NCBI RefSeq assembly: GCF_004010195.1
Contig: NC_057754.1
Span: forward strand, 12,930,122 to 12,950,121
Length of the DNA: 20,000 bases
Source of the DNA: Chiloscyllium plagiosum
Taxonomy: Eukaryota
Direction of reading: 5' to 3'
In this document: in pieces, positions 1-20,000 of the stretch
How the letters are laid out: the number at the start of each line of letters is the position of its first letter
Numbering within the stretch: position 1 is the stretch's first letter
Translations under genes and position numbers: made by a program
The notes under the pieces: model-generated
The model's database searches: none
What the model saw: only the letters and a program-made list of their open reading frames with translations
Told to the model about the DNA's origin: nothing

Positions 1-123
1 CTCTTTTAAAGCTTTTCACCTCACCTTCAATCTGTGTGCTCTAGTTTTGAACTTCCCCAACCTCAGAAAATATCCTTGGTTATTCGCCATTTCCACGGCC
101 CTCATGATTTTATAAACCTCTAT
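1..123 (-). mobile_element. CR1 LINE fragment (ORF2 C-terminal region), cut by the Penelope insertion
   Basis: 'ctcatgattttataaacctcta' and upstream sequence resemble the CR1 3' region seen at ~10830-10860 and ~19430-19460; similarity stops where the inverted Penelope segment begins. Confidence 0.7.
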
Positions 124-355
124 CTGCCGCTTCCGGTTGTCAGTTCCAGCTGTCCGCTGCAGTGGCCAGTGTATTAGGTCCAGGTCGATGTGCTTATTGA
201 TTGAATCTGTGGATGAGTGCCATGCCTCTAGGAATTCCCTGGCTGTTCTCTGTTTGGCTTGTCCTATAATAGTAGTGTTATTCCAGCCGAACCCATGTTA
301 CTTGTCATCTGAGTGTGTGGCTACTTAGGATAGCTGGTCATGTCGTTTCGTGGCT
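121..355 (-). mobile_element. Inverted 5' copy of the Penelope-like element 3' region (GIY-YIG C-terminus / pLTR part)
   Basis: Ungapped reverse complement of 2291-2525; about 15 mismatches in 235 nt by manual count. ORFs 137..328(+) and 2237..2557(-) give near-identical peptides. Confidence 0.95.
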
Positions 356-399
356 CGTCGTGACAAGCCTGGGACACAACCAGACAGAACGGATTCAGG

Positions 400-2603
400 A
401 TGATCCAGGTAATGATTACAGACGCACACAACAGACTACACAAATACAGACAAGAAATTGCGCGCCAAAAATCGTTTATTTCAAAAACCACCAATCAGGA
501 TTGGACCCGGACCATAGAACAGGCCATCACCATAGTACAGAACAGGACCACACACCGCAAAAAAGGCACTAAACGAAAAAATGGCCAAACTAACACATAA
601 CAGAGAGGACACCACAACACACTCCTGGGTTAGAAACATCTCCCACAGACAGCTCACAGACACGGAAAGAACAACACTGGCCAAGGGACTCAATTACAAC
701 CACAGGGTCGCCAAGACAGCAGACTTCCTAGCAGCACTACAATGCACACTCAGAAACGAAGGACTGACAGAAGAGACACAACAAACAGTGAGACAAAGTA
801 TCGTACCACTGATAACAAGGAAAAGACAAACACATTAACTCAACACCAAGGAGAGGGAAGCAGTAATAGCACTAAAAAACGATAAGAACATAATCATACT
901 ACCAGCAGACAAAGGCAGAATGACGGCCATCCTGGACAAACCAGACTACATCCAAAAAGCGCAACAACTACTTACTGATACCAACACCTACCAAAAGAGG
1001 GAGTTTGACCCCACGCCACAGCTCGCCAGTAGGATAAACAACACATTAAGGAACCTACAAAAAAACGGACAGATAACCAGGTTTGATCTACAGAGAATGA
1101 AACCCGAAAGCAACAACACCCCCAGATTATATGGACTACCTAAAGTGCACAAACCAGACACCCCACTCAGACCCATAGTATCACTACAAGGGACACCATC
1201 ACACAAACTGGCTAAAGAACTGCAGTAGAAACTGAAACACCTGATCAACTGATCCAGACACTCTATACAGTCAACACAGGAATTCTTGGACATCATCAGA
1301 AATATACACATAGACAAGGAAGAGATTATGGTCTCATTTGATGTAACGGCACTGTTCATCTCTATCGACAAAACCCTAGCCAGAGAAACAATAGCCAACC
1401 TGCTGGACATACATAACAGTCAACAAGACCGGGAACCTATCAACAAAGACTGCATACTCAAACTACTGGACCTGTGCCTCACAACACACTTCATATTCAA
1501 CAACCAATATGTGAACAAATCAACGGCACACCCATGGGCTCACCCATCTCTGGACTCATAGCAGAAGCGGTAATGCAAAGGTTAGAACAAACAGTCTAAC
1601 CGCAAATTCAACTCAAACTCTGGGTCAGATATGTGGATGATAACTTTGTAATCATTAAAAACACAGAAATCGAGAACACACACCGGATCATCAACGCAAC
1701 ACTCACAGGAATCCGATTCACGAGAGAGGAAGAAAAGGACAACCAACTCCCATTCCTAGACGTTATGATACAGAGAACGCCGAACGGAGAATTCACCACA
1801 AAGCTATACAGGAAAGCCACACACACAGACCAAGTCCTAAACTACGAAAGCAACCACCCCAACACACACAAAATAAGTTGCATCATGACACTGTTCGAAA
1901 GGGCCACACCACACTGCAGTACACCAGAACTGCAAAAAGAGGAAGAAGAACACCTATACAATGTCTTTGCCAAAAACTGATACCTCCGCAATTTCATCAT
2001 CAGATGCCTAAGGGAAAGACAACGAAATGAGGACATGCCACAACCCAAAGTACTAGCCATACCCTAACCTACATCAAAAACATTTCTGAACTGACAGCCA
2101 GACCACTAGAATTCATAACAGCACACAAGTCAACAGCCACTCTCAGACAACAACTCACCAGGACAAAGGACCCGATATCCAGCATGAGCAAAACCAATGT
2201 GGTGTACAAAATACCATGCAAGGACTGCACAAAACACTACATAGGACAAACAGGAAGACAGCTAGCTATCCGCATCCATGAACACCAACTAGCCACGAAA
2301 CGACATGACCAGCTATCCTTAGTAGCCACACACTCAGATGACAAGCAACATGAGTTCGACTGGAACAACACTACTATTATAGGACAAGCCAAACAGAGAA
2401 CAACTATGGAATTCCTAGAGGCATGGCACTCATCCACAGATTCAATCAATAAGCACATCGAAATGGACACAATATACCGGCCACTGCAGCGGACAGCTGG
2501 AACTGACAATCGGAAGCGGCAGATAAAAATCACGTTAAATGCCGGAGGAAACATCACAGAAGCGCTTCACAGGAGGCTCCCAAGCACTGAGGATGTCACC
2601 TAA
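400..2603 (+). pseudogene. Disrupted PLE polyprotein ORF (N-terminal region, RT, GIY-YIG endonuclease)
   Basis: Collinear ORF pieces 400-600, 581-838, 920-1228, 1286-1561, 1633-1980, 2184-2603 separated by stops and frameshifts; final stop TAA at 2601-2603. Confidence 0.9.
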
Positions 2604-2623
2604 ACAGGGGACGAAACGTCTGC
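2584..2623 (+). ncRNA. Minimal type I hammerhead ribozyme of the PLE pLTR
   Basis: GCA(2584-86) CTGAGGA(2587-93) T GTCACCT-AAAC-AGGGGAC (helix II, 6/7 pairs) GAAAC(2613-17) GTC(2618-20) TGC(2621-23). CUGANGA and GAAA core intact, GCA/TGC helix I, palindromic ACGT in the helix III region. Confidence 0.85.
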
Positions 2624-2716
2624 AACACAAATTCCCAGCTCGGCGAACAGAACCACAACATATATTCAACTCATTCCACCAAAACAAATTACACTATTTC
2701 CCAGCTGCTTTTAGAT

Positions 2717-2832
2717 CTGATGCATGCTGAGTGGACTGAAAACTTTAACTCTGTTTTTCTCTCAACAGAAGCTGCCAAACCTGTTCCGTTTCCCCAGCAC
2801 TTTGTATCTTTTTGTTTCAGATATTCAGTAGC
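2717..2832 (+). mobile_element. Old short repeat derived from a PLE 3' end (degenerate hammerhead plus tail)
   Basis: 'ctgatg...gactgaaaactttaactctgtttttctctcaacagaagctgccaaacctg...tttccccagca' resembles 8232-8311 and a common shark PLE-derived repeat (from memory). Confidence 0.55.
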
Positions 2833-2870
2833 TTTCTTTTTTTTATTTAATGTTTCTTTTTGGTATTTCA

Positions 2871-3240
2871 TGGGATGTCAGCGTCACTGTGAAGGGCAGC
2901 ATTTGATGACCATCACTAATTGCCCTTAATTGTGATCATTCCACAAGGCAGTACAGAGCCAAGCACATTGTTGTGGGTCTGAAGTCAGTCTCAATCCAGA
3001 CCAAATAACGATGTTAGATTTCTTTACCAAAGCACATCAATGAAACAGATAGATTTTTAGACAAAAATCGCCTCGTTTTATGGTTGCAGTTCGTGCATTT
3101 GTTTTTATTTCGCTTCTTATCACTTGAATTTAAGTTCTGCGATCAGCTGTGGTAGGATTTGAGACAGTATCTTTAGTATTCTAACCTGTGCCTCTGAATT
3201 ACCTATCCAGCGACATTACTACTCTGACACGGTGTCCCTA
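2871..3240 (-). mobile_element. Deu-domain (SacSINE1-like) tRNA-derived SINE, diverged
   Basis: Tail 'gggatgtcagcgtcactg...catcactaattgccctt', core 'cacattgttgtgggtctgaagtca...ccagacca', tRNA-like head at ~3150-3240; similar to 17251-17463. Confidence 0.65.
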
Positions 3241-3657
3241 TCGTGAACATACTTTAGAGACATTACAAGTTTGTGATCGATTTATTCGTAACTGGAGCAG
3301 TGGCCAGAAGACAACTGTAACTGTAAAGTATGACCTTTCACAAGGCATAGGCAATGGTTTATTCAGCAACGGCACTGACACAATGGTGGAGACTCAGGGT
3401 ATTATGAAGCTGGTAGTGGGCAGATTTGGTGATGGAGACAATACCAAGACATACATCAGTTCAACGCAAAAAGGGTCCTCACAGTTTTGTTTCAGACGTC
3501 TGTGAGGGAGGAGTCTGAAATTTGTGTATAATGAATGGATTTTATAATGGAACTAGATACAATAGTTTCTGTCTTTACCAGATAGAGATAACAAAAAAGC
3601 AATGAAGTTCCACATGGCTTATGGAATTAATAAATAGATAGAGAGTGAAAAACTTAC

Positions 3658-3874
3658 CAGGAACACCAACAATAGCGAGGGTGGGATAATAACCTGCCTG
3701 AATAATCATCAGTGCACCGTATATTTGCCATGATAATGTTGACCTAGGCCAGGAAAACAAGAAAAGACCATCGGATAAACTCCTGTGCATTGTTGTAACA
3801 TTCCAGTCTATTGTTCTCAGATACTGATCGATTATTGGAATATTCCAGTCTAATGTTCTCAGGTTATGATCCAT
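3658..3874 (-). CDS. Putative first coding exon of a GPR139/GPR142-like class A GPCR (N-terminus and start of TM1); rest of gene not in window
   Basis: ATG at 3874 in good Kozak context (gtaATGg); 72 codons + 1 nt ending '...MIIQAGYYPTLAIVGVP' then canonical donor G|GTAAGT (3657-3652). YYxxLxxxGxP resembles GPR139 TM1 (YYSLLLCLGLP, recalled, with an intron at the same place); N-glycosylation sequon NVT. Confidence 0.75.
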
Positions 3875-3913
3875 TACTGGAACATTCAAGTCTGTTGTTC
3901 TCAGATTCTGATA
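3788..3913 (-). repeat. Coding tandem repeat, 3 x 42 bp (6 x 21-bp subunits), in the GPCR N-terminus / 5' UTR
   Basis: Units 3913-3872, 3871-3830, 3829-3788 translate in frame as YQNLRTTDLNVPVM / DHNLRTLDWNIPII / DQYLRTIDWNVTTM. Confidence 0.9.
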
Positions 3914-4658
3914 TCTCCTCTCCCTGCCTCTGTAGCTACTGACTCCGTTAGTGTTGGAGGTGATGTGTCTGCTGCTACCATGGGATAAAGCACCGAAAGA
4001 CGTCCCTTACTAATAGGAGAGAGAAAGCTCTATTGACACAGTTTGAGTGTCCATAGAGACTGACATCAATCACAGTTACTGAACAACGAGTTCCAGTTAA
4101 CCCCTTTTTCTACAGCATTTTCAGCTCACATTAACAACTGAAATGGATTGGATGGCGACATCATTAGGTATTGGTCTCATCTCCAATCACTAGTGAAGTC
4201 AGTGCTGAGGTGGGGGTGGGGGGGTCTGATGGATGTTTTCTTTTCGCAGATGAGATGTTTCTGCTGTGTTGTTCATGTTCAATGTTGTAATGGCTTGAAG
4301 CCCCAAAAATCACACAATCAAGTTGTTGTTATTGTGCTGTTCTCTCCTCCGCTCGAACAATTGCCAACCAAAAGATTGTCCCTGGGCAGAGTTGCCCTGG
4401 CCTTACAGAGGAAGTTTGTACAGGTGTGGACATTACTCTGACTGCTGTCTGAAGGCAATGCTGAAATGTCAACACACAAGTTGCGCTCAAGTTTTTTTTA
4501 AATTGGCATGCATCTTATTGCTGTTTTATTCGCTTTAAATCAGTGAGAATTACATTTTTTTACTTCAGTCCAAAGGGAAAATAAATGGCATGAACAAAGA
4601 CCTTGTTCATTAAAACTAATGGATTAATGAAAAAGGGACAGAATGAAAATAACATTAG

Positions 4659-5220
4659 GTTATGTCAGGGCCCGGGTGTCCTTGGAGAAGGAGCACGCGG
4701 TGTCCACCAACATCCTGGAGTTGTTCAGGGAGAGGTCGGTGCCGCAGGGAGTAGAGTGCATTATTTCCCCCTCCTACTCTATTTTGATTAAGTCCCTGCC
4801 CTCCCCTTCACTGTTTTGATCACACAGAACTACCCTTTGATGTGAAGGGCAGTGCTTGTCACCGGCCAGCCGGGTGTTTTCCTTTCTTCCTGTTGGTGGA
4901 AATTGAATAAAGATTCGTACACTTTGTGTTTTTCAATGTGTCTCACACCTGCACACACACAACAGGGGTGCTGGGGTAAAAATAAGCACTACCGCAGTTA
5001 GGCGGTAGTGTGTGGGTTAAATTTTAAAGAAAAGAAAAAAAAGAAAAAAATGAACAGGAGTTTTTTGTCACTGGCCATTCGGGTGTTTTCCTATCTTCCT
5101 GGTGGTGGAAATTGAATAAAGATTCGTACACCTTGTGTCTTTCACTGTGTCTCATACCTGAAAAAAAAAACAGAAGTGCCTGTTTGATCACGACGCATCA
5201 CCCTTTGATGTGAAGAGAAA
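4659..5220 (+). mobile_element. 5'-truncated Tx1/L1-clade-like LINE 3' end with appended extra 3'UTR fragments, bounded by a 17-bp TSD
   Basis: TSD AATGAAAATAACATTAG at 4642-4658 and 5221-5237; ORF2-like C-terminus YVRARVSLEKEHAVSTNILELFRERSVPQGVECIISPSYSILI; AATAAA; A-rich tail ~5026-5050. Clade call from memory. Confidence 0.75.
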
Positions 5221-5767: not shown

Positions 5768-7639
5768 TATAGAACATAGTACATTACAGCGCAGTACAGA
5801 TCCTTCTGCCCTCAATGTTGCGCCGACCTATGAAACCAATCTGAAGCCCATCTAACCTACACTACTCCACTTTTCATCCATATGCTTATCCAACGACCAC
5901 TGAAATGGCCTTAAAGTTGGCGAGTCAACTTCTGTTGCAGGTAGTGCGTTCCACACCCCGCTCCTCTTTGAGTAAAGAAACCACCTCTGACATCTGTCCA
6001 TTACATCTCAATTTAAAGCTAGGTATCCTCCTGCTAGCCATTACTATCCAAAAACAGGCTCTCGCTATCCAGCCTATCTAATCTCTGATTATATTATATG
6101 CCTGAATTAAGACACCTCTCAACAGTCTCTCAAAAGAAAACAGCCTCAAGTCCCTCAGCCTTTCCTCATAAGACATCCATACTAGGCAACAACCTAGTAA
6201 AGCTCATCTGAACCCTTTCCAAAGATACCACATCCTTCAGTGAATGAGGTGACCAGAACTGTGTTCAATAGTCCAGCTGCAACATGACCCAATGGCTCTG
6301 AAACTCAATCCCTCTACTAATAAAAACAAACACACCATATTCCTTCGGAATAACCCGATGAAACTGGGTAGCAACATTCAGGGATCTATGTACATGGACA
6401 CTGAGGAATCTCTACTCATCTACACGACCAAGAGTCTTACCAAGAGCCCAATACTGTGCATTCCTGTTGCTCTATCCAAAGTAAAATACCTGACATTGTT
6501 CCACATTGCATTCCATTTGCCACCTCACAGCCCAGCCTCCAAATTATCTGTGTCCTGCTGTAACCCACAACATCATTTGGCACTATCCACAACTCTAGCA
6601 CCCTTAGTGTCATCTGCAAATTTACGAACGTATCCTTCTACGCCATCATCCAGATCGTTTATAAAACTGACAAAACAGATCCTTGCGGTACACCACTAGT
6701 AACTGAACTCCAGGATGAACATTTCCCATCAGCTACCACCCTCTGTCTTTTTTCAGCCAGCCAATTCCTGATCCAAACCGCGAAATTACCCTCCAACCCA
6801 TGCCTCTGTATTTTTTGCAATAGCCTATCGTGGGGAAAAATGTGAGGACTTCAGATGCTGAGATCAGAGCTGAAAATGTGTTGCTGGAACTCTCCTGCTG
6901 CGCTTCTCCTATCGTGGGGAACCTTACCAAACGCTTTACTGAATGTCATATGCACTACTTCAACCGTTTTACCCGCATCCACCTGTTTGGTCACCTTCTC
7001 AAAAAATCCAATAAGGTGTGTGAGGCACGACTTACCCTTCACCAAACCGTGTTGACTATACCTAATCAAATTATTCCTTTCTAGATGAGTATAAACCCTA
7101 TCTCTTTAACAATTTCAACACTTTACCCACAACCAAAGTAACGCTCACTGGTCTATCATTCGACTCTACTCCCCTTCTTGAATAAGGTAACATTTGCTAT
7201 CCTCCAGCCTTCTGCACTATTCCTGTAGACAATGACAACATTAAGATCAAAGCCAAAGGCTCTGCAATTTCGTCCCTGGCTTCCCACAGAATCCTAGGCT
7301 AAATCCCATCCAGCACAGGGGAGTTATCTATTTTTAAACTTTCCAGAATTGCTAACACCTCTTTCTTGTGAACCTTTATCCTATCTAATCTGCTGACTTG
7401 TATCTCAGGATTCTCCTCGTCAGCATTGGCTATTTTCTAGTGTGAATACTGATGAAAAAAATGACTTAGCGCTTTCCCTATCTCCTCTGACTCCAAGCAC
7501 AAATTCCCACTACTACACCTGATAGGCCCTAATGTTATTTTAGTCATTTTTAAAAATCCTGATATAGTTATCGAAAGCCTTCGGGTTTTCCTTGACCCAA
7601 TCAACCAACGACTTCTCATGTCCCCTCCTGGCTCTTCGA
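5768..7639 (-). mobile_element. CR1 LINE, 5'-truncated, internally deleted, diverged
   Basis: Collinear with 10501-12360; RT peptides 'SQHGLVKGKSCLTHLIGFFEKVT', 'VKENPKAF'; tail 'tagaacatag'; possible TSD TGCACA (5762-5767, 7640-7645). Confidence 0.9.
6838..6907. mobile_element. 70-bp PLE-3'-end-like insert inside the CR1, flanked by a 14-bp duplication
   Basis: CCTATCGTGGGGAA at 6824-6837 and 6908-6921; the paralogous CR1 site (~11627-11640) is uninterrupted. Confidence 0.75.
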
Positions 7640-10500: not shown

Positions 10501-12843
10501 TAGAATATAGAACATAGAAAAATACAGCGCAGTACAGGCCCTTTGGCCCTCGATGTTGCGCCGATCCAAGCCCACCTAACCTACACTAGCCCACTATCCA
10601 CCATATGCCTATCCAATGCCCGTTTAAATGCCCATAAAGAGGGAGAGTCCACCACTGCGACTGGCAGGGCATTCCATGAACTAACGACTCGCTGAGTAAA
10701 GAATCTACCCCTAACATCTGTCCTATACCTACCACCCCTTAATTTAAAGCTATGCCCCCTATACCTACCACCCCTTAATTTAAAGCTGACTCCATACGTG
10801 GAAAAAGGTTCTCATGGTCAACCCTATCTAAACCCCTAATCATCTTGTACACCTCTATCAAGTCACCCCTAAACCTTCTTTTCTCCAATGAAAAGAGCCT
10901 CAAGTGCCTCAGCCTTTCCTCGTACGATTTTACTACCATACCAGGCAACATCCTGGTAAACCTCCTCTCAACCCGTTCCAGTGCCTCCAAATCCTTCCTC
11001 TTGTATGGCGACCAAAACTGCACACAATACTCCAGATGCGGCCGCACCAGAGTCTGATACAACTGCAACATGACCTCAGGACTCCGGAACTCAATTCCTC
11101 TACCAATAAAAGCCAGTACGCCATATGCATTCTTTACCGCACTATTTACCTGGGTGGCAACTGTCAGAGATCTGTGTACATGGACACCAATATCCTTCTG
11201 CTAATCCACACTACCAAGTATCCGACTATTAGCTCAGTACCCCATCTTTTTGTTACTCTTACCAAAATGAATCACCTCACACTTACGTCCATTGAACTCC
11301 ATTTGCTACCTTTCTGCCCAGCTCTGCAGCTTATCTATATCCCGCTGTAACCTGACACATCCTTCCTCACTGTCAACAACTCCACCGACTTTTGTATCAT
11401 CTGCAAACTTGCTCACCCAACCTTCTCGCACCTCCTCCAGGTCATTTATAAAAATGACAAACAGCAATAGTCCCAAAACAGATCCTTGCGGAACACCACT
11501 AGTAACTGCACTCCAAGCTGAACCTTTGCCATCAACTACTACCCTCTGTCTTCTTCCAGCCAGCCAATTCCTAATCCAAACCTCCAACTCACCCTCAATG
11601 CCATACCTCCGTATTTATTGCAGTAGCCTATCATGGGGAACCTTAACAAACGCCTTACTAAGATCCATATACACCACATCTACCGCTTTACTCTCGTCCA
11701 CCTCCTTAGTTACCTTCTCAAAGAATTCAATCAGGTTTGTGAGGCACGACCTGCCCTTCACAAAACCATGCTGACTATCCCTGATCACATTATTCCTATC
11801 CAGATGTTCATAAATCCTATCCCTGACAATTCTCTCTAAGACTTTGCCCACAACAGAAGTGAGACTCACCGGCCTATAGTTACTAGTGTTATCCCTACTC
11901 CCCTTCTTGAACAAGGGAACCACATTTGCTATCCTCTAGTCTTCTGGCACTATTCCCGTAGACAACGAGGACATAAAAATCAAGGCCAATGGCTCTGCAA
12001 TCTCCTCCCTTGCTTCCCAGAGAATCCTGGGATAAATGCCATCAGACCCAGGGGACTTATCTATTTTCACCCTTTCCAGAATTTCCAACACCTCTTCCCT
12101 ACATACCTCAAAGCCGTCCATTCTAATTAATTGTGACTCAGTATTCACTTTGGCAACAGTGTCCTGTTCCTGAGTGAATACTGACGTAAAGTATTCACTC
12201 AGTGTCTCCCCAATCTCTTCAGCCTCCACTTCCCACTACTATCCTTGACTGGACCTATTCCTACCCTCGTCATCCTTTTATTCCTGACATACCTATAGAA
12301 AGCCTTTGGGGTTTCCCTAATCCTACCAACTAAGGACTTTTCATTTCCCCTCCTTGCTGCTCTTAGCTCTCTCTTCAGATCCTTCCTGGCTACCTTAAAT
12401 CTCTCAATCGCCCCAATTGAACCTTAACTCCTCATCTTTACATAGGCCGCCCTCTTCCCTTTAACAAGGGATTCCTATTCCTTATTAAACCACGGCTCCC
12501 TCACACGACCCTTTCCTCCCTGCCTGACAGGTATATACTTATCAAGGACACTCTTTAGTTGCTCCTTGAACAATCTCCACATATCATTTGTGCCCTTGCC
12601 TTGATACCTACTTTTCCAAGCCACGCATCCTAAGTCGTGCCTCACCGCATCATAATTTCCCTGCCCCCAGCTATAACTCTTGCCCTACAATGCACACTTA
12701 TCCTTCTCCATCATTAGAGTAAAAGTCCCCGAATTGTCGTCATTGTCCCCAAAGTGCTCACCTACCTCCAATTCTAACACCTGGCCTGGTTCGTTCCCCA
12801 GAACCAAATCCAATATGGCCTTACCTCTTTTTGGCCTGTCTAC
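10501..12843 (-). mobile_element. Relatively young CR1 LINE, 5'-truncated in the APE endonuclease domain
   Basis: ORF2 pieces: 'AILDLVLGNEPGQVLELEVGEHFGD' (EN end), 'KSPGSDGIYPRIL', 'NYRPVSLTSVVGKVLE', '[10 protein letters not shown]', 'SKFADDTK', 'LVRPHLEYCVQFWSP'; (TAGAACA)n tail at 10501. Confidence 0.95.
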
Positions 12844-13210
12844 TGCACTTTGAAAGAATAACAACACAAGAGAGTACTCAAACCATGAAAATGGCTAGAT
12901 TTGCTTTTGCTTTACTTTGGAGCAGAGAAGGTTATGGTGAGAACCTGACAGAGGTGTATAACCGCATGAGAAGTATAGACAGAGTGAACAGACAGCAGCT
13001 GTTCCCCTTAGTCAAACGGTTAAATATAAGCGGACACACGTTTAAAGTGAAAGACAAGAGGTTCAGTGAGGATTTGTGAAATCTGGTTTGAACCCAGAGG
13101 GTGATATGCTTCTGGAATGCATTGCCTGTGAGGGTTGTTGAGGAAGGAAACCGTACAAACTTGGCAAAACACTTGTATCAGCACTTGATGGTGCCAGATT
13201 TGATAGGCAT
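12841..13210 (+). mobile_element. Old CR1 continuation (right half), internally deleted
   Basis: 'ctgcactttgaaagaataac' continues the CEVxHFGxxN motif begun at ~10495; 'ENLTEVYNRMRSIDRVNRQQLFPLV...GHTFKV' is CR1 ORF2 C-terminus. Confidence 0.75.
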
Positions 13211-16130: not shown

Positions 16131-16822
16131 ACTTTTATATCACGACACAGTGTGTTTTATAATCTTATATTCACGAAAAGAACTGTAAGTCGACTCATAA
16201 ACAACAACATCTGTTTATTGAACGCAATTAATATTAGAACAATAAATTGTACTATAATGTAACGAAACACATTACAAACTACCTTATGCTTTAACTTAAC
16301 TTTGTATGATCGTATACCACTTCAACAGAGCATTGCCGGGCTCCACGTGCTGATTTCTCCTTCTTACGATGGACTTGGATGCGTCTTCTGCTTTGGTGGT
16401 TATTCTCGATTTACTGCGCTAAGTGGGGTTTTGCAGTGATTCTCATTCTTCAGAGTCTTCACCTCATTTTGGGAGGATATGGAGGATCTGTCAACAGAAT
16501 GACCAAGTTGGATAACTCTAATCAATCAGACCCAACCAAAGGTTTGCGCTTTGATGGCCCAAGGGAGGCATTCCGTTGTCCCATTCAAATTCAACTCCAG
16601 GTTTGTATTGCCGGGTCTGTAGCTGTCAAGTTTGTTTACAAACCGTCTGTGGGTAGCTGCAGCCTGTCTGGATTCTGCAGCATGTGGATTAGCACAGAAA
16701 GTTTACTCAAGGTCGGGATCCATTTCTCAGCATGCTTTAATCATTGTTCGTTTTTGTAACTCCATGGTAATTTGTTAATGTCCATCATAATTTCGTTATT
16801 TCAGGTGGCAAGTCTGGTCACA
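16131..16822 (-). mobile_element. ~690-bp insertion splitting a CR1; solo-LTR-like
   Basis: CR1 reads '...gttaggaa' (16130) and resumes 'aaggcaaat' (16823). On the minus strand the insert starts TGTGACC and has AATAAA (~16214-16219) ~80 nt before its end. No clean TSD or terminal CA seen. Confidence 0.5.
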
Positions 16823-17250
16823 AAGGCAAATACAATTATGGCATTTATTTTGAGAGGGCTTGAATATAAAAGCATGGATGTAATTCTGAGACTCTATAAG
16901 GCTCTAATCAGACCAAATTTGGATTATTGTGTGATGTTTTGGGCCCCATATATCAGGAAGGATACACTGCCCCTGGAGCGTGTTCAGAGGCAGTTCACAT
17001 GAATGGCCTCAGGAATGAAAAGCCTAACATATGAGGTCTCTGAGATTAAACTCGCTGAAGTTGAGAAGGATGAGGGGATCTAATTGAATCATGTAAAGTA
17101 CGAAGTGCCTGGCCAGAGTAGATGTCAGAAAGATGCTTCCATTGTTAGGAGGGGAAAGGACCCAAAGGCATAGTATCATAGTTAAGGGAAGACCTTTTAT
17201 ATCGGAGATAAGGAGAAATGTCTTCAGCCAGAGAGTGATGAATCTGTGGC
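16823..17250 (+). mobile_element. Diverged CR1, right part
   Basis: 'KANTIMAFILRGLEYKSMDVILRLYKALIRPNLDYCVMFWAPY' and 'RRNVFSQRVMNLW'. Confidence 0.85.
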
Positions 17251-17463
17251 AAGGATGGAAGTTTCCTTCCTTAAAGGACATTAGTGAACCAGATGAGTTT
17301 TCCCTTACAATGGATTCATGACCACCATCAGTCTCTTAATTCCACATTTGAATTCAAACTCCATCATCTACCATGGCAGAATTCAAATCCAGGTCATCAG
17401 AACATTAGCTGGGTCTCTCGCTTAAAAGTTCAGCGATAACACTACCAAGCCACTGCCTTGCCC
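17251..17463 (-). mobile_element. Deu-domain (SacSINE1-like) SINE, 5' half
   Basis: 'gtttccttccttaaaggacattagtgaaccagatg' core; tRNA-like head on the minus strand; similar to ~3005-3240. Confidence 0.7.
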
Positions 17464-18586: not shown

Positions 18587-19119
18587 GAATACAGAACATA
18601 GAACATGGCAGAGCGGTACAGGCCCTTCGGCCCTCAATTTTGCGCCAAACTGTGGAACCAATCTGAAGTCCATCTAACCTTCCCTATTCCATTCTCAATC
18701 ACATGCCTATCCAATGCCCATTTAAATGCCCTTAAAGTTGGCGAGTCCACGACTGTTGCAGGCAATGCATTCCATTCCCCGACTATTCTGAGTACCTCTG
18801 GCATCTGTCCCATATCTATTAATTAATAGTAATATTAATATCTTCCTCAATTTAAAGCTATCTCTCCTCGTGCTAGGCATCGCCATCCGAGGGAAAAGGC
18901 GCTCATTGTCCACCCCATCTCATCCTCTGATTATCTTGAATGTCTCAATTAATTGGCCTCAAATATCTTCTCTCGAACAAAAACAGATTCAAGTCCATCA
19001 GCCATCCTCCGTACCAGGTAAAAAATCTCCTGAAAACCCTTTCCAAATCTTTAACACACTTCCTCTAATGCGGTGATCTGAACCAGAGGCAACACTCCAG
19101 ATGTGGCCGCACCAGAGTT
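18587..19119 (-). mobile_element. CR1 3' fragment (same subfamily as 5768-7639)
   Basis: 'cagaacatagaaca' tail and 'ggaaccaatctgaag' 3'UTR shared with ~5830-5850; ends at 'ggccgcaccagagtt'. Confidence 0.85.
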
Positions 19120-19673
19120 ATAGAACATAGAACATAGAAGGATACAGCGCAGTACAGGCCCTTTGGCCCTCGATGTTGCGCCGATCCAAGCCCACCTAAC
19201 CTATACTAACCCACTATCCTCCATATACCTATCCAATGCCCGCTTAAATGCCCATAAAGAGGGAGAGTCCACCACTGCTACTGGTAGGGCATTCCATGAA
19301 CTTACGAGTCGCTGAGTGAAGAACCTACCCCTAACTTCAGTCCTATATCTACCCCCCCTTAATTTAAAGCTATGCCCCCTCGTAATAGCTGACTCCATAC
19401 GTGGAAAAAGGTTCTCATGGTCAACCCTATCTAAACCCCTAATCATCTTGTACACCTCAATCAAGTCACCCCTAAACCTTCTTTTCTCTAATGAAAACAG
19501 CCCCAAGTGTCTCAGTCTTTCCTCATACGATCTTCCTTCCATACCAGGCAACATCCTGGTAAACCTCCTCTGCAACCGTTCCAGTGCCTCCACATCCTTC
19601 CGAAAGTATGGTGACCAAAACTGCACACAATATTCCAGATGCGGCCGCACCAGAGTCTTATACAACTGCAACA
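19120..19673 (-). mobile_element. Young CR1 3' fragment with open ORF2 C-terminus
   Basis: Highly similar to 10501-11070; ORF open from LQLYKTLVRPHLEY to the stop at 19201; (TAGAACA)n tail; 5' end joins a (CA)n run. Confidence 0.95.
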
Positions 19674-19689
19674 CACACACACATATCTC

Positions 19690-20000
19690 GGAACTGCTGA
19701 AATAGTGCACTGTTACTGAGAACACACTCACACAACTCGGAACTGCTGAAACAGTGCACTGTCACTGAGAACACGCACACTAGGAACTGCTGAAACAGTG
19801 CACTGTCACTGAGAACACGCACACTAGGAACTGCTGAAACAGTGCACTGTCACTGAGAACACGCACACTAGGAACTGCTGAAACAGTGCACTGTCACTGA
19901 GAACACGCACACTAGGAACTGCTGAAACAGTGCACTGTCACTGAGAACACGCACACTAGGAACTGCTGAAACAGTGCACTGTCACTGAGAACACACACAC
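19690..20000. repeat. 44-bp minisatellite continuing beyond the window
   Basis: Unit GGAACTGCTGAAACAGTGCACTGTCACTGAGAACACGCACACTA starting at 19739, 19783, 19827, 19871, 19915, 19959 (last partial); diverged 49-bp first unit at 19690. Confidence 0.97.

Follow-up and report, generated by a model that had tools for sequence, protein, structure and literature searches.

A first exon of a repeat-bearing, GPR139-related shark receptor family in the Chiloscyllium plagiosum genome

A receptor first exon on the minus strand

The minus-strand segment 3874–3658 of a 20,000-nt stretch of Chiloscyllium plagiosum contig NC_057754.1 (hereafter, the window) is a real exon 1 of a member of the shark "probable GPR139" family, and its match to that family is far beyond chance. 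We lean toward the view that the family consists of two-exon class A GPCR genes of sharks, is large and clustered, and evolves by birth and death; the exon in the window belongs to one member. Because exon 2 is absent from the window, homology supports "first exon of a receptor" and not a complete gene.

The coding exon 1 (3658..3874, minus strand) is delineated by its open frame, by phmmer matches, by a family exon-1 profile, and by identity to the whale-shark protein P0048. It is 217 nt long (72 codons plus 1 nt). Its product begins with two 14-aa repeat units, continues through a variable spacer of ~30 aa, and ends in the outer half of TM1. The start codon at 3874 lies in the context GTA ATG G, with a purine at −3 and a G at +4, and an additional in-frame ATG is found at 3790. 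The frame from 3874 to 3658 is free of stops and ends in the residues ...IVGVP plus one G, where the hydropathy climbs (sliding mean 1.4), as for half a helix. The phase-1 splice donor GTAAGT (3652..3657, minus strand) occupies a family-wide position, the codon before N1.50, and loose ends of contigs fall at 3650–3652. The ATG, the open frame, the TM1-like peptide, and the GTAAGT donor are all present at 3874–3652, as the original prediction had claimed.

The exon-1 profile, which was built from 82 full-length relatives, scored 103.3 bits at 3922–3659 and found nothing above 0 bits in the rest of the window. The top score among 30 shuffled windows was −0.5, which argues against a chance open reading frame. 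A phmmer comparison of exon 1 with 1.84 billion representatives returned 32 matches (best E 5e-46). Exon 1 alone had no Pfam match and nothing usable in the PDB or the ESM Atlas; a word-based comparison of the 72-aa exon with longer database proteins, a weak test, gave 21 candidates and no significant one, and a profile of mostly fragmentary matches found nothing in the PDB. The family profile, the phmmer matches, and the full-length relatives bear out the proposal that the segment is the first exon of a class A receptor related to GPR139. The best score of an exon-2 profile across the window was −2.0 bits. Since this profile finds nothing, intron 1 should exceed 3.66 kb; it would occupy at least 3.66 kb of the window (1..3657, minus strand) and run off it.

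Relatives and the shared exon boundary

The nearest full-length relative is P0048, which is identical to the exon at 41 of 57 residues (72%) and to its core at 30 of 44 residues. Twenty of the 32 phmmer matches were looked up: 14 are shark proteins (13 by name and one by accession) from the genera Stegostoma, Scyliorhinus, Rhincodon, and Cetorhinus, and the other 6 are JGI/IMG or ENA records without a name. Three of the 20 are named "probable GPR139." The relatives P0024 and P0026 are full 7tm_1 proteins (62.5 and 64.2 bits; cut-off 30.5).

The TM1 motif is present in 26 of the 32 phmmer matches; the remaining 6, which are low-complexity or repeat-only, were dropped. Among the motif-bearing matches, 12 run into a donor-like GK, GE, SK, or CK after the motif, as the window does in GVPGKFF, 10 proceed into the second half of TM1, and 4 stop or diverge. 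Six of 27 further models are unrelated up to the TM1 junction and match from the next residue onward. At 3652, six bases into the intron, the match ends in 46 contigs of one run and 49 of another. The exon boundary is thus a feature of the family, because the motif read-through, the model junctions, and the contig ends coincide. GPR139 probably has its intron at the same TM1 codon. The locus carries both marks of the family: the order of 14-aa repeat, spacer, and YYP.LA..GVP TM1 motif, and a phase-1 intron directly after the GVP of that motif.

Twenty of the 27 newly listed models (P0160–P0175, P0177, P0179, P0181, and P0182) either lack the exon 1 typical of the family or begin within TM2 at an internal Met, and therefore the annotation undercounts full-length members. 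The Heptranchias models P0037 and P0038 (462 and 493 aa) have no repeat and score above what their identity suggests; they are possibly fused neighbors. CR1/L2-type LINE sequence leaks into some RefSeq receptor models as false N-termini. A tree based on 13% of the alignment columns placed the exon in a catshark clade, whereas the best identity is to whale shark, and the placement was discarded.

N-terminal tandem repeat and upstream frames

A repeat scan and translation identified three 42-bp tandem units (3788..3912, minus strand) that correspond to the 14-aa N-terminal repeat, a feature absent from the original prediction. Unit 1 lies upstream of the main ATG, and units 2 and 3 are coding. 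An N-x-T sequon is retained in unit 3 only; that is to say, two of three sequons are lost at the locus. TM1 could be located in 114 of 121 relatives, of which 12, 52, 26, 11, 10, and 3 have 0, 1, 2, 3, 4, and 5 repeat copies, with median N-terminal lengths of 35, 49, 64.5, 83, 85, and 99, respectively, or ~14 aa per unit. P0003 has 9 units, and an N-glycosylation sequon is found in 127 of 192 repeat units. We relied on these direct unit counts; a mod-14 test of N-terminal lengths peaks at 14, yet every tested period is significant in it because the paralogs are not independent. The simplest reading is that the length of this stalk changes through unequal crossing-over.

Two upstream ATGs, at 3981 and 3885, are both out of frame with the main ATG. 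Frame reading assigns the former to an upstream ORF of 26 codons (3901..3981, minus strand) and the latter, which is part of a repeat unit, to an upstream ORF of three codons (3874..3885, minus strand) whose stop overlaps the main ATG. An N-terminal extension from the ATG at 3981 was considered and rejected: the stretch is treated as 5′ UTR because it is out of frame, because paralogs have 1- to 2-nt indels at 4027–4048, and because a homologous stretch is modeled in frame with the receptor in only 4 of 150 relatives.

Intron, flanks, and other elements of the window

The putative intron holds a decayed retrotransposon (509..2603, plus strand), which lies opposite to the gene and which we take to be Penelope-like from its RT motifs. 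Its RT and GIY-YIG-like frames are interrupted by stops and frameshifts, and the GIY-YIG match is weak (E 0.016) and fails the cut-off. The 3′ end of the element is repeated inverted at 121–358 (238 nt, 93% complementary).

Upstream of the exon, contig depth marked a segment common to many paralogs (4040..4106, minus strand). Its depth was 5,587 and 19,377, compared with 451–1,746 in two adjacent bins, and 37 and 45 contigs cover position 4055. The segment is a candidate core promoter or 5′ UTR element. The slightly longer stretch 4040–4115 (minus strand) holds TCAGTCT, presumably an initiator-like motif, and run X7 contigs that leave the window at 4107 continue into an AT-rich, TATA-like stretch that is missing from the window copy. 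Neither a TATA box nor a satellite array of 26-bp period turned up upstream of the exon. Farther upstream, a dispersed repeat of 96 nt occurs twice within 4815–5215, with 91% identity between the copies. A high-copy element begins near 4658, because depth climbs very steeply from about that position in all four runs. Decayed CR1/L2-type LINE fragments lie at 6253–7105, 10775–12900, 16760–17335, and 18600–19761, with an RVT_1 match at 11306–11614 (E 1e-7). A 44-bp satellite with at least 7 copies (96% matches) occupies 19690–20000, 15.8 kb upstream of the exon, and runs off the right end of the window.

Family size and lineage-specific expansion

Searches with P0024 and P0048 gave 2,020 and 2,134 matches; the best 120 of each were examined, and the totals were not used as family size. 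All of the best 120 in both searches are shark proteins, and no ray or chimaera is among the matches listed. The 120 listed for P0024 include 64 from Heterodontus and 25 from Heptranchias, and 15 of the 120 listed for P0048 lie on one whale-shark contig. In a tree of 122 rows, which was made by a quick method with no outgroup from a sample biased to the best matches, the species labels need 16 changes, compared with 54.2 when shuffled. This clustering therefore indicates a pattern of lineage-specific expansion.

Paralogs are also seen in contigs that cover the locus. At least 93 contigs in run X1 and at least 108 in run X7 have a different letter at 3681, and one X1 contig is identical to the window over 3469–3675. 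The intron and the upstream region are covered by fewer contigs than the exon, at 82%–90% identity; since they too are covered, close paralogs share flanks. Depth ratios in the contig runs were not used as copy numbers, and a search of metagenome and viral contigs for paralog DNA with two motif patterns gave no matches. The large shark paralog family labeled "probable GPR139" to which the original prediction had pointed is thus found in the search lists and in the at least 93 paralogous contigs, and it has the large, clustered, lineage-specific expansion of chemosensory receptor families.

Relation to GPR139 and class A receptors

L-Trp and L-Phe activate the class A orphan receptors GPR139 and GPR142. 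The family profile retrieved GPR139 first from the PDB (E 4e-15) and the PAF receptor next (1e-9). GPR139 also ranked first by fold for the AlphaFold model of P0024 (pLDDT 62, moderate), by a small margin and at 20% identity. In the ESM Atlas, the neighbors of P0048 are clusters of "probable GPR139" and of FMRFamide-receptor-like proteins, which may serve as a lead. True GPR139 orthologues are 70%–96% identical, and the zebrafish and human proteins 70%, according to the available text of PMC7318219. By contrast, a family member is ~20% identical to human GPR139. Together with the at least 93 paralogous contigs, this speaks against a GPR139 orthologue. The original prediction had remarked that the N-terminus is unlike that of true GPR139.

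The six pocket residues described for Trp and Phe in GPR139 (E108, F109, H187, W241, R244, and N271; same part of PMC7318219) were mapped through the profile alignment onto the 82 relatives, a set that excludes the window copy itself. H187 (H5.43) is kept in 77 of 82 and W241 (W6.48) in all 82, and the position of F109 (3.33) is aromatic in 80 (Y in 61 and F in 19). The position of E108 is L in 79 of 82, that of R244 is L in 47 and F in 33 (80 of 82), and that of N271 is F in 73 of 82. The family is thus related to GPR139 yet is not GPR139: identity is ~20%, and three of the six pocket residues, the polar E108, R244, and N271, are lost. Judged from these sequences, the family probably does not bind free Trp or Phe as GPR139 does, and aromatic amino-acid sensing is doubtful.

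Most class A hallmarks are retained. N1.50, D2.50, D3.49, R3.50, both TM3–ECL2 cysteines, and W6.48 are found in 82 of 82 relatives, and F3.51 in 81. The exceptions are the class A proline P6.50, which occurs in 2 of 82, and NPxxY, which reads NTxxY in 80 of 82.

Conserved core and variable outer surface

Alignment columns of the exon-1 spacer have an entropy of 2.1 bits and those of ECL2 and ECL3 of 1.8 and 2.0, compared with 0.22 in TM3, and the thirteen deep-pocket positions have a mean of 0.44 bits. Outward-facing positions account for 29 of the 30 columns with the most variation, and 12 lie in exon 1. In the predicted model of P0024 (pLDDT 62), the spacer forms a short helix ahead of a long TM1. 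A near-fixed deep pocket below a variable outer surface that includes exon 1 suggests large or peptide ligands. The suggestion is a weak one, because in every GPCR family the loops are more variable than the helices and the entropies come from this family alone.

Discussion

A bold proposal, with a probability of roughly 0.3, is that the exon is part of an unrecognized fifth large vertebrate chemosensory repertoire, which would have been built in sharks from the GPR139 lineage and would read peptide or protein cues via a hypervariable surface on a repeat stalk of variable length. In the broader reading that we hold more likely than not, exon 1 would be joined in phase 1 to an exon 2 that lies past position 1 and codes for the remainder of TM1 through TM7. 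The resulting receptor would have a glycosylated stalk, variable in length and composed of the 14-aa repeats, followed by a hypervariable N-terminal helix and the top of TM1. Together with ECL1–3, this helix and the TM1 top would form an outer surface that differs from paralog to paralog and covers a nearly fixed core of seven helices. The family would most likely be a repertoire for discriminating among many related external ligands while signaling via a common G protein. The ligands would probably be peptides or proteins rather than free Trp or Phe. The simplest reading is a fixed signaling core with a lid specific to each paralog, carried on a glycosylated stalk, which would suit peptide or protein ligands better than many small odorants.

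Other readings of the family have to be weighed against this broader one. It is highly improbable that the exon is a chance ORF or comes from a single-copy orthologue of GPR139 or GPR142; RefSeq calls the relatives "probable G-protein coupled receptor 139," which speaks for orthology, but the ~20% identity to human GPR139, set against the 70% of the zebrafish orthologue, and the at least 93 paralogous contigs speak against it, as the shuffled windows do against chance. A single-copy GPR139 orthologue, the outcome that the original prediction had itself regarded as fatal, is excluded by the paralog lists and these contigs. It is unlikely, although less so, that the ancestral function has simply been multiplied, yielding a repertoire of amino-acid or small-molecule sensors for nutrients, taste, or smell like GPR139 and GPR142. 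GPR139 is the closest solved relative by both profile and fold, and H5.43, W6.48, and the aromatic residue at 3.33 are kept as noted above; against this stand the replacements of E108, R244, and N271 and the near-invariance of the deep pocket among paralogs, a poor fit to the coding of many small molecules. Another tentative possibility is that the family is internal or immune and not sensory, comprising receptors of leukocytes, gut, skin, or reproductive tissue that respond to peptides of the host or of microbes, as in the FPR or MRGPR expansions. The variable outer surface, the glycosylated stalk, and the lineage-specific expansions would suit such receptors, yet the same features equally fit sensory ones. 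In the available portion of a catshark study (PMC11979771), expression outside the nose is described for several "olfactory" receptor genes, and no GPCR appears among the 50 most specific brain-and-nose genes; sparsely expressed receptors, however, miss top-50 lists.

A separate question is whether the copy in the window is functional. We consider it rather more probable that the copy is intact than dead. Because the window ends before any exon 2 and none of the reads was spliced, it may be a pseudogene, or a stray exon 1 that a duplication left behind and from which no receptor is made; we regard this as the less probable state, although a serious one. The exon core scored 60.9 bits, above 3 of 33 held-out full-length members and 13 of 28 other matches, and this low score, the loss of two of three sequons, the retroelement inside the intron, and the truncated models among the nearest relatives (P0003, P0009, P0012, and P0019) are consistent with decay, as are the two out-of-frame upstream ATGs. 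However, the profile used for scoring is dominated by two other shark lineages, the 217-nt frame is open with a perfect donor, all five invariant residues of the family alignment are kept, the YYPT variant is shared with the full-length proteins P0080, P0108, and P0118, and one close paralog contig keeps the upstream frame gap-free over 3851–4025. The transcript data are compatible both with expression and with its absence. In 2% of the single-cell run X21 (unstated tissue), 123 RNA reads were placed, 13 of them at ≥99% identity; few, mostly diverged reads fall on exon 1, and none of the 123 showed a joint at the donor or an exon-2 loose end at 3657. Contigs of run X23 read through the donor without splicing and may derive from DNA.

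The titles, abstract openings, and few subscription papers covered by our literature search contained no published description of the family expansion, and GPR139 is absent from the main text and from the 12 of 24 supplementary files searched of PMC8455134. The family is thus machine-annotated and apparently undescribed in the literature. As far as the accessible text of these sources goes, cartilaginous fishes are characterized by few olfactory receptors (PMC10116579) and by a relative paucity of GPCRs (PMC8455134), and the catshark has 2 OR and 6 OR-like genes, 3 ORA, 3 TAAR, and 32 annotated V2R (PMC11979771). Dozens of annotated members per species among the best 120 matches, under one automatic label, conflict with the few-GPCR picture. 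If the proposal is true, a fifth repertoire would explain the fine smell of sharks despite so few OR, TAAR, and V1R genes. The family may be a missing part of shark chemical sensing and could reopen the question of shark chemosensation, which is testable with existing tissue RNA-seq. The locus shows one exon of a predicted receptor and no function; as one of many copies it adds exon 1 only, and it is useful as an entry point to the family and its variable-number coding repeat.

Comparison with known systems places the exon closest to the RefSeq shark models named "probable G-protein coupled receptor 139" (Rhincodon, Stegostoma, Heterodontus, Heptranchias, Scyliorhinus, and others), which have the same repeat, spacer, TM1 motif, and splice position; the repeat units of the window exon are more degenerate, and the RefSeq label is an automatic name with a putative function. 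GPR139 itself shares with the shark family a YY motif in TM1 and the lack of P7.50, and both have two-exon genes (for GPR139, according to the available text of PMC7318219). The shark family differs from GPR139 in that (i) it has many paralogs per genome, compared with one; (ii) E108, R244, N271, and P6.50 are replaced; (iii) an N-terminal 14-aa tandem repeat is present; and (iv) ECL2 and ICL3 are longer in the alignment. GPR210A/B of coelacanth, gar, and fishes are likewise additional GPR139/142-related lineages outside mammals, but with a few genes per genome in contrast to the large shark family (Rinne et al. 2019, available part of PMC6504862); the main text of that paper leaves sharks unmentioned. 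The OR, TAAR, V1R/ORA, and V2R/OlfC families show a clustered, lineage-specific birth-and-death pattern like that of the shark family, although none of them is among its listed matches, and they are small in sharks, as in the catshark example above (PMC11979771, in the portion available).
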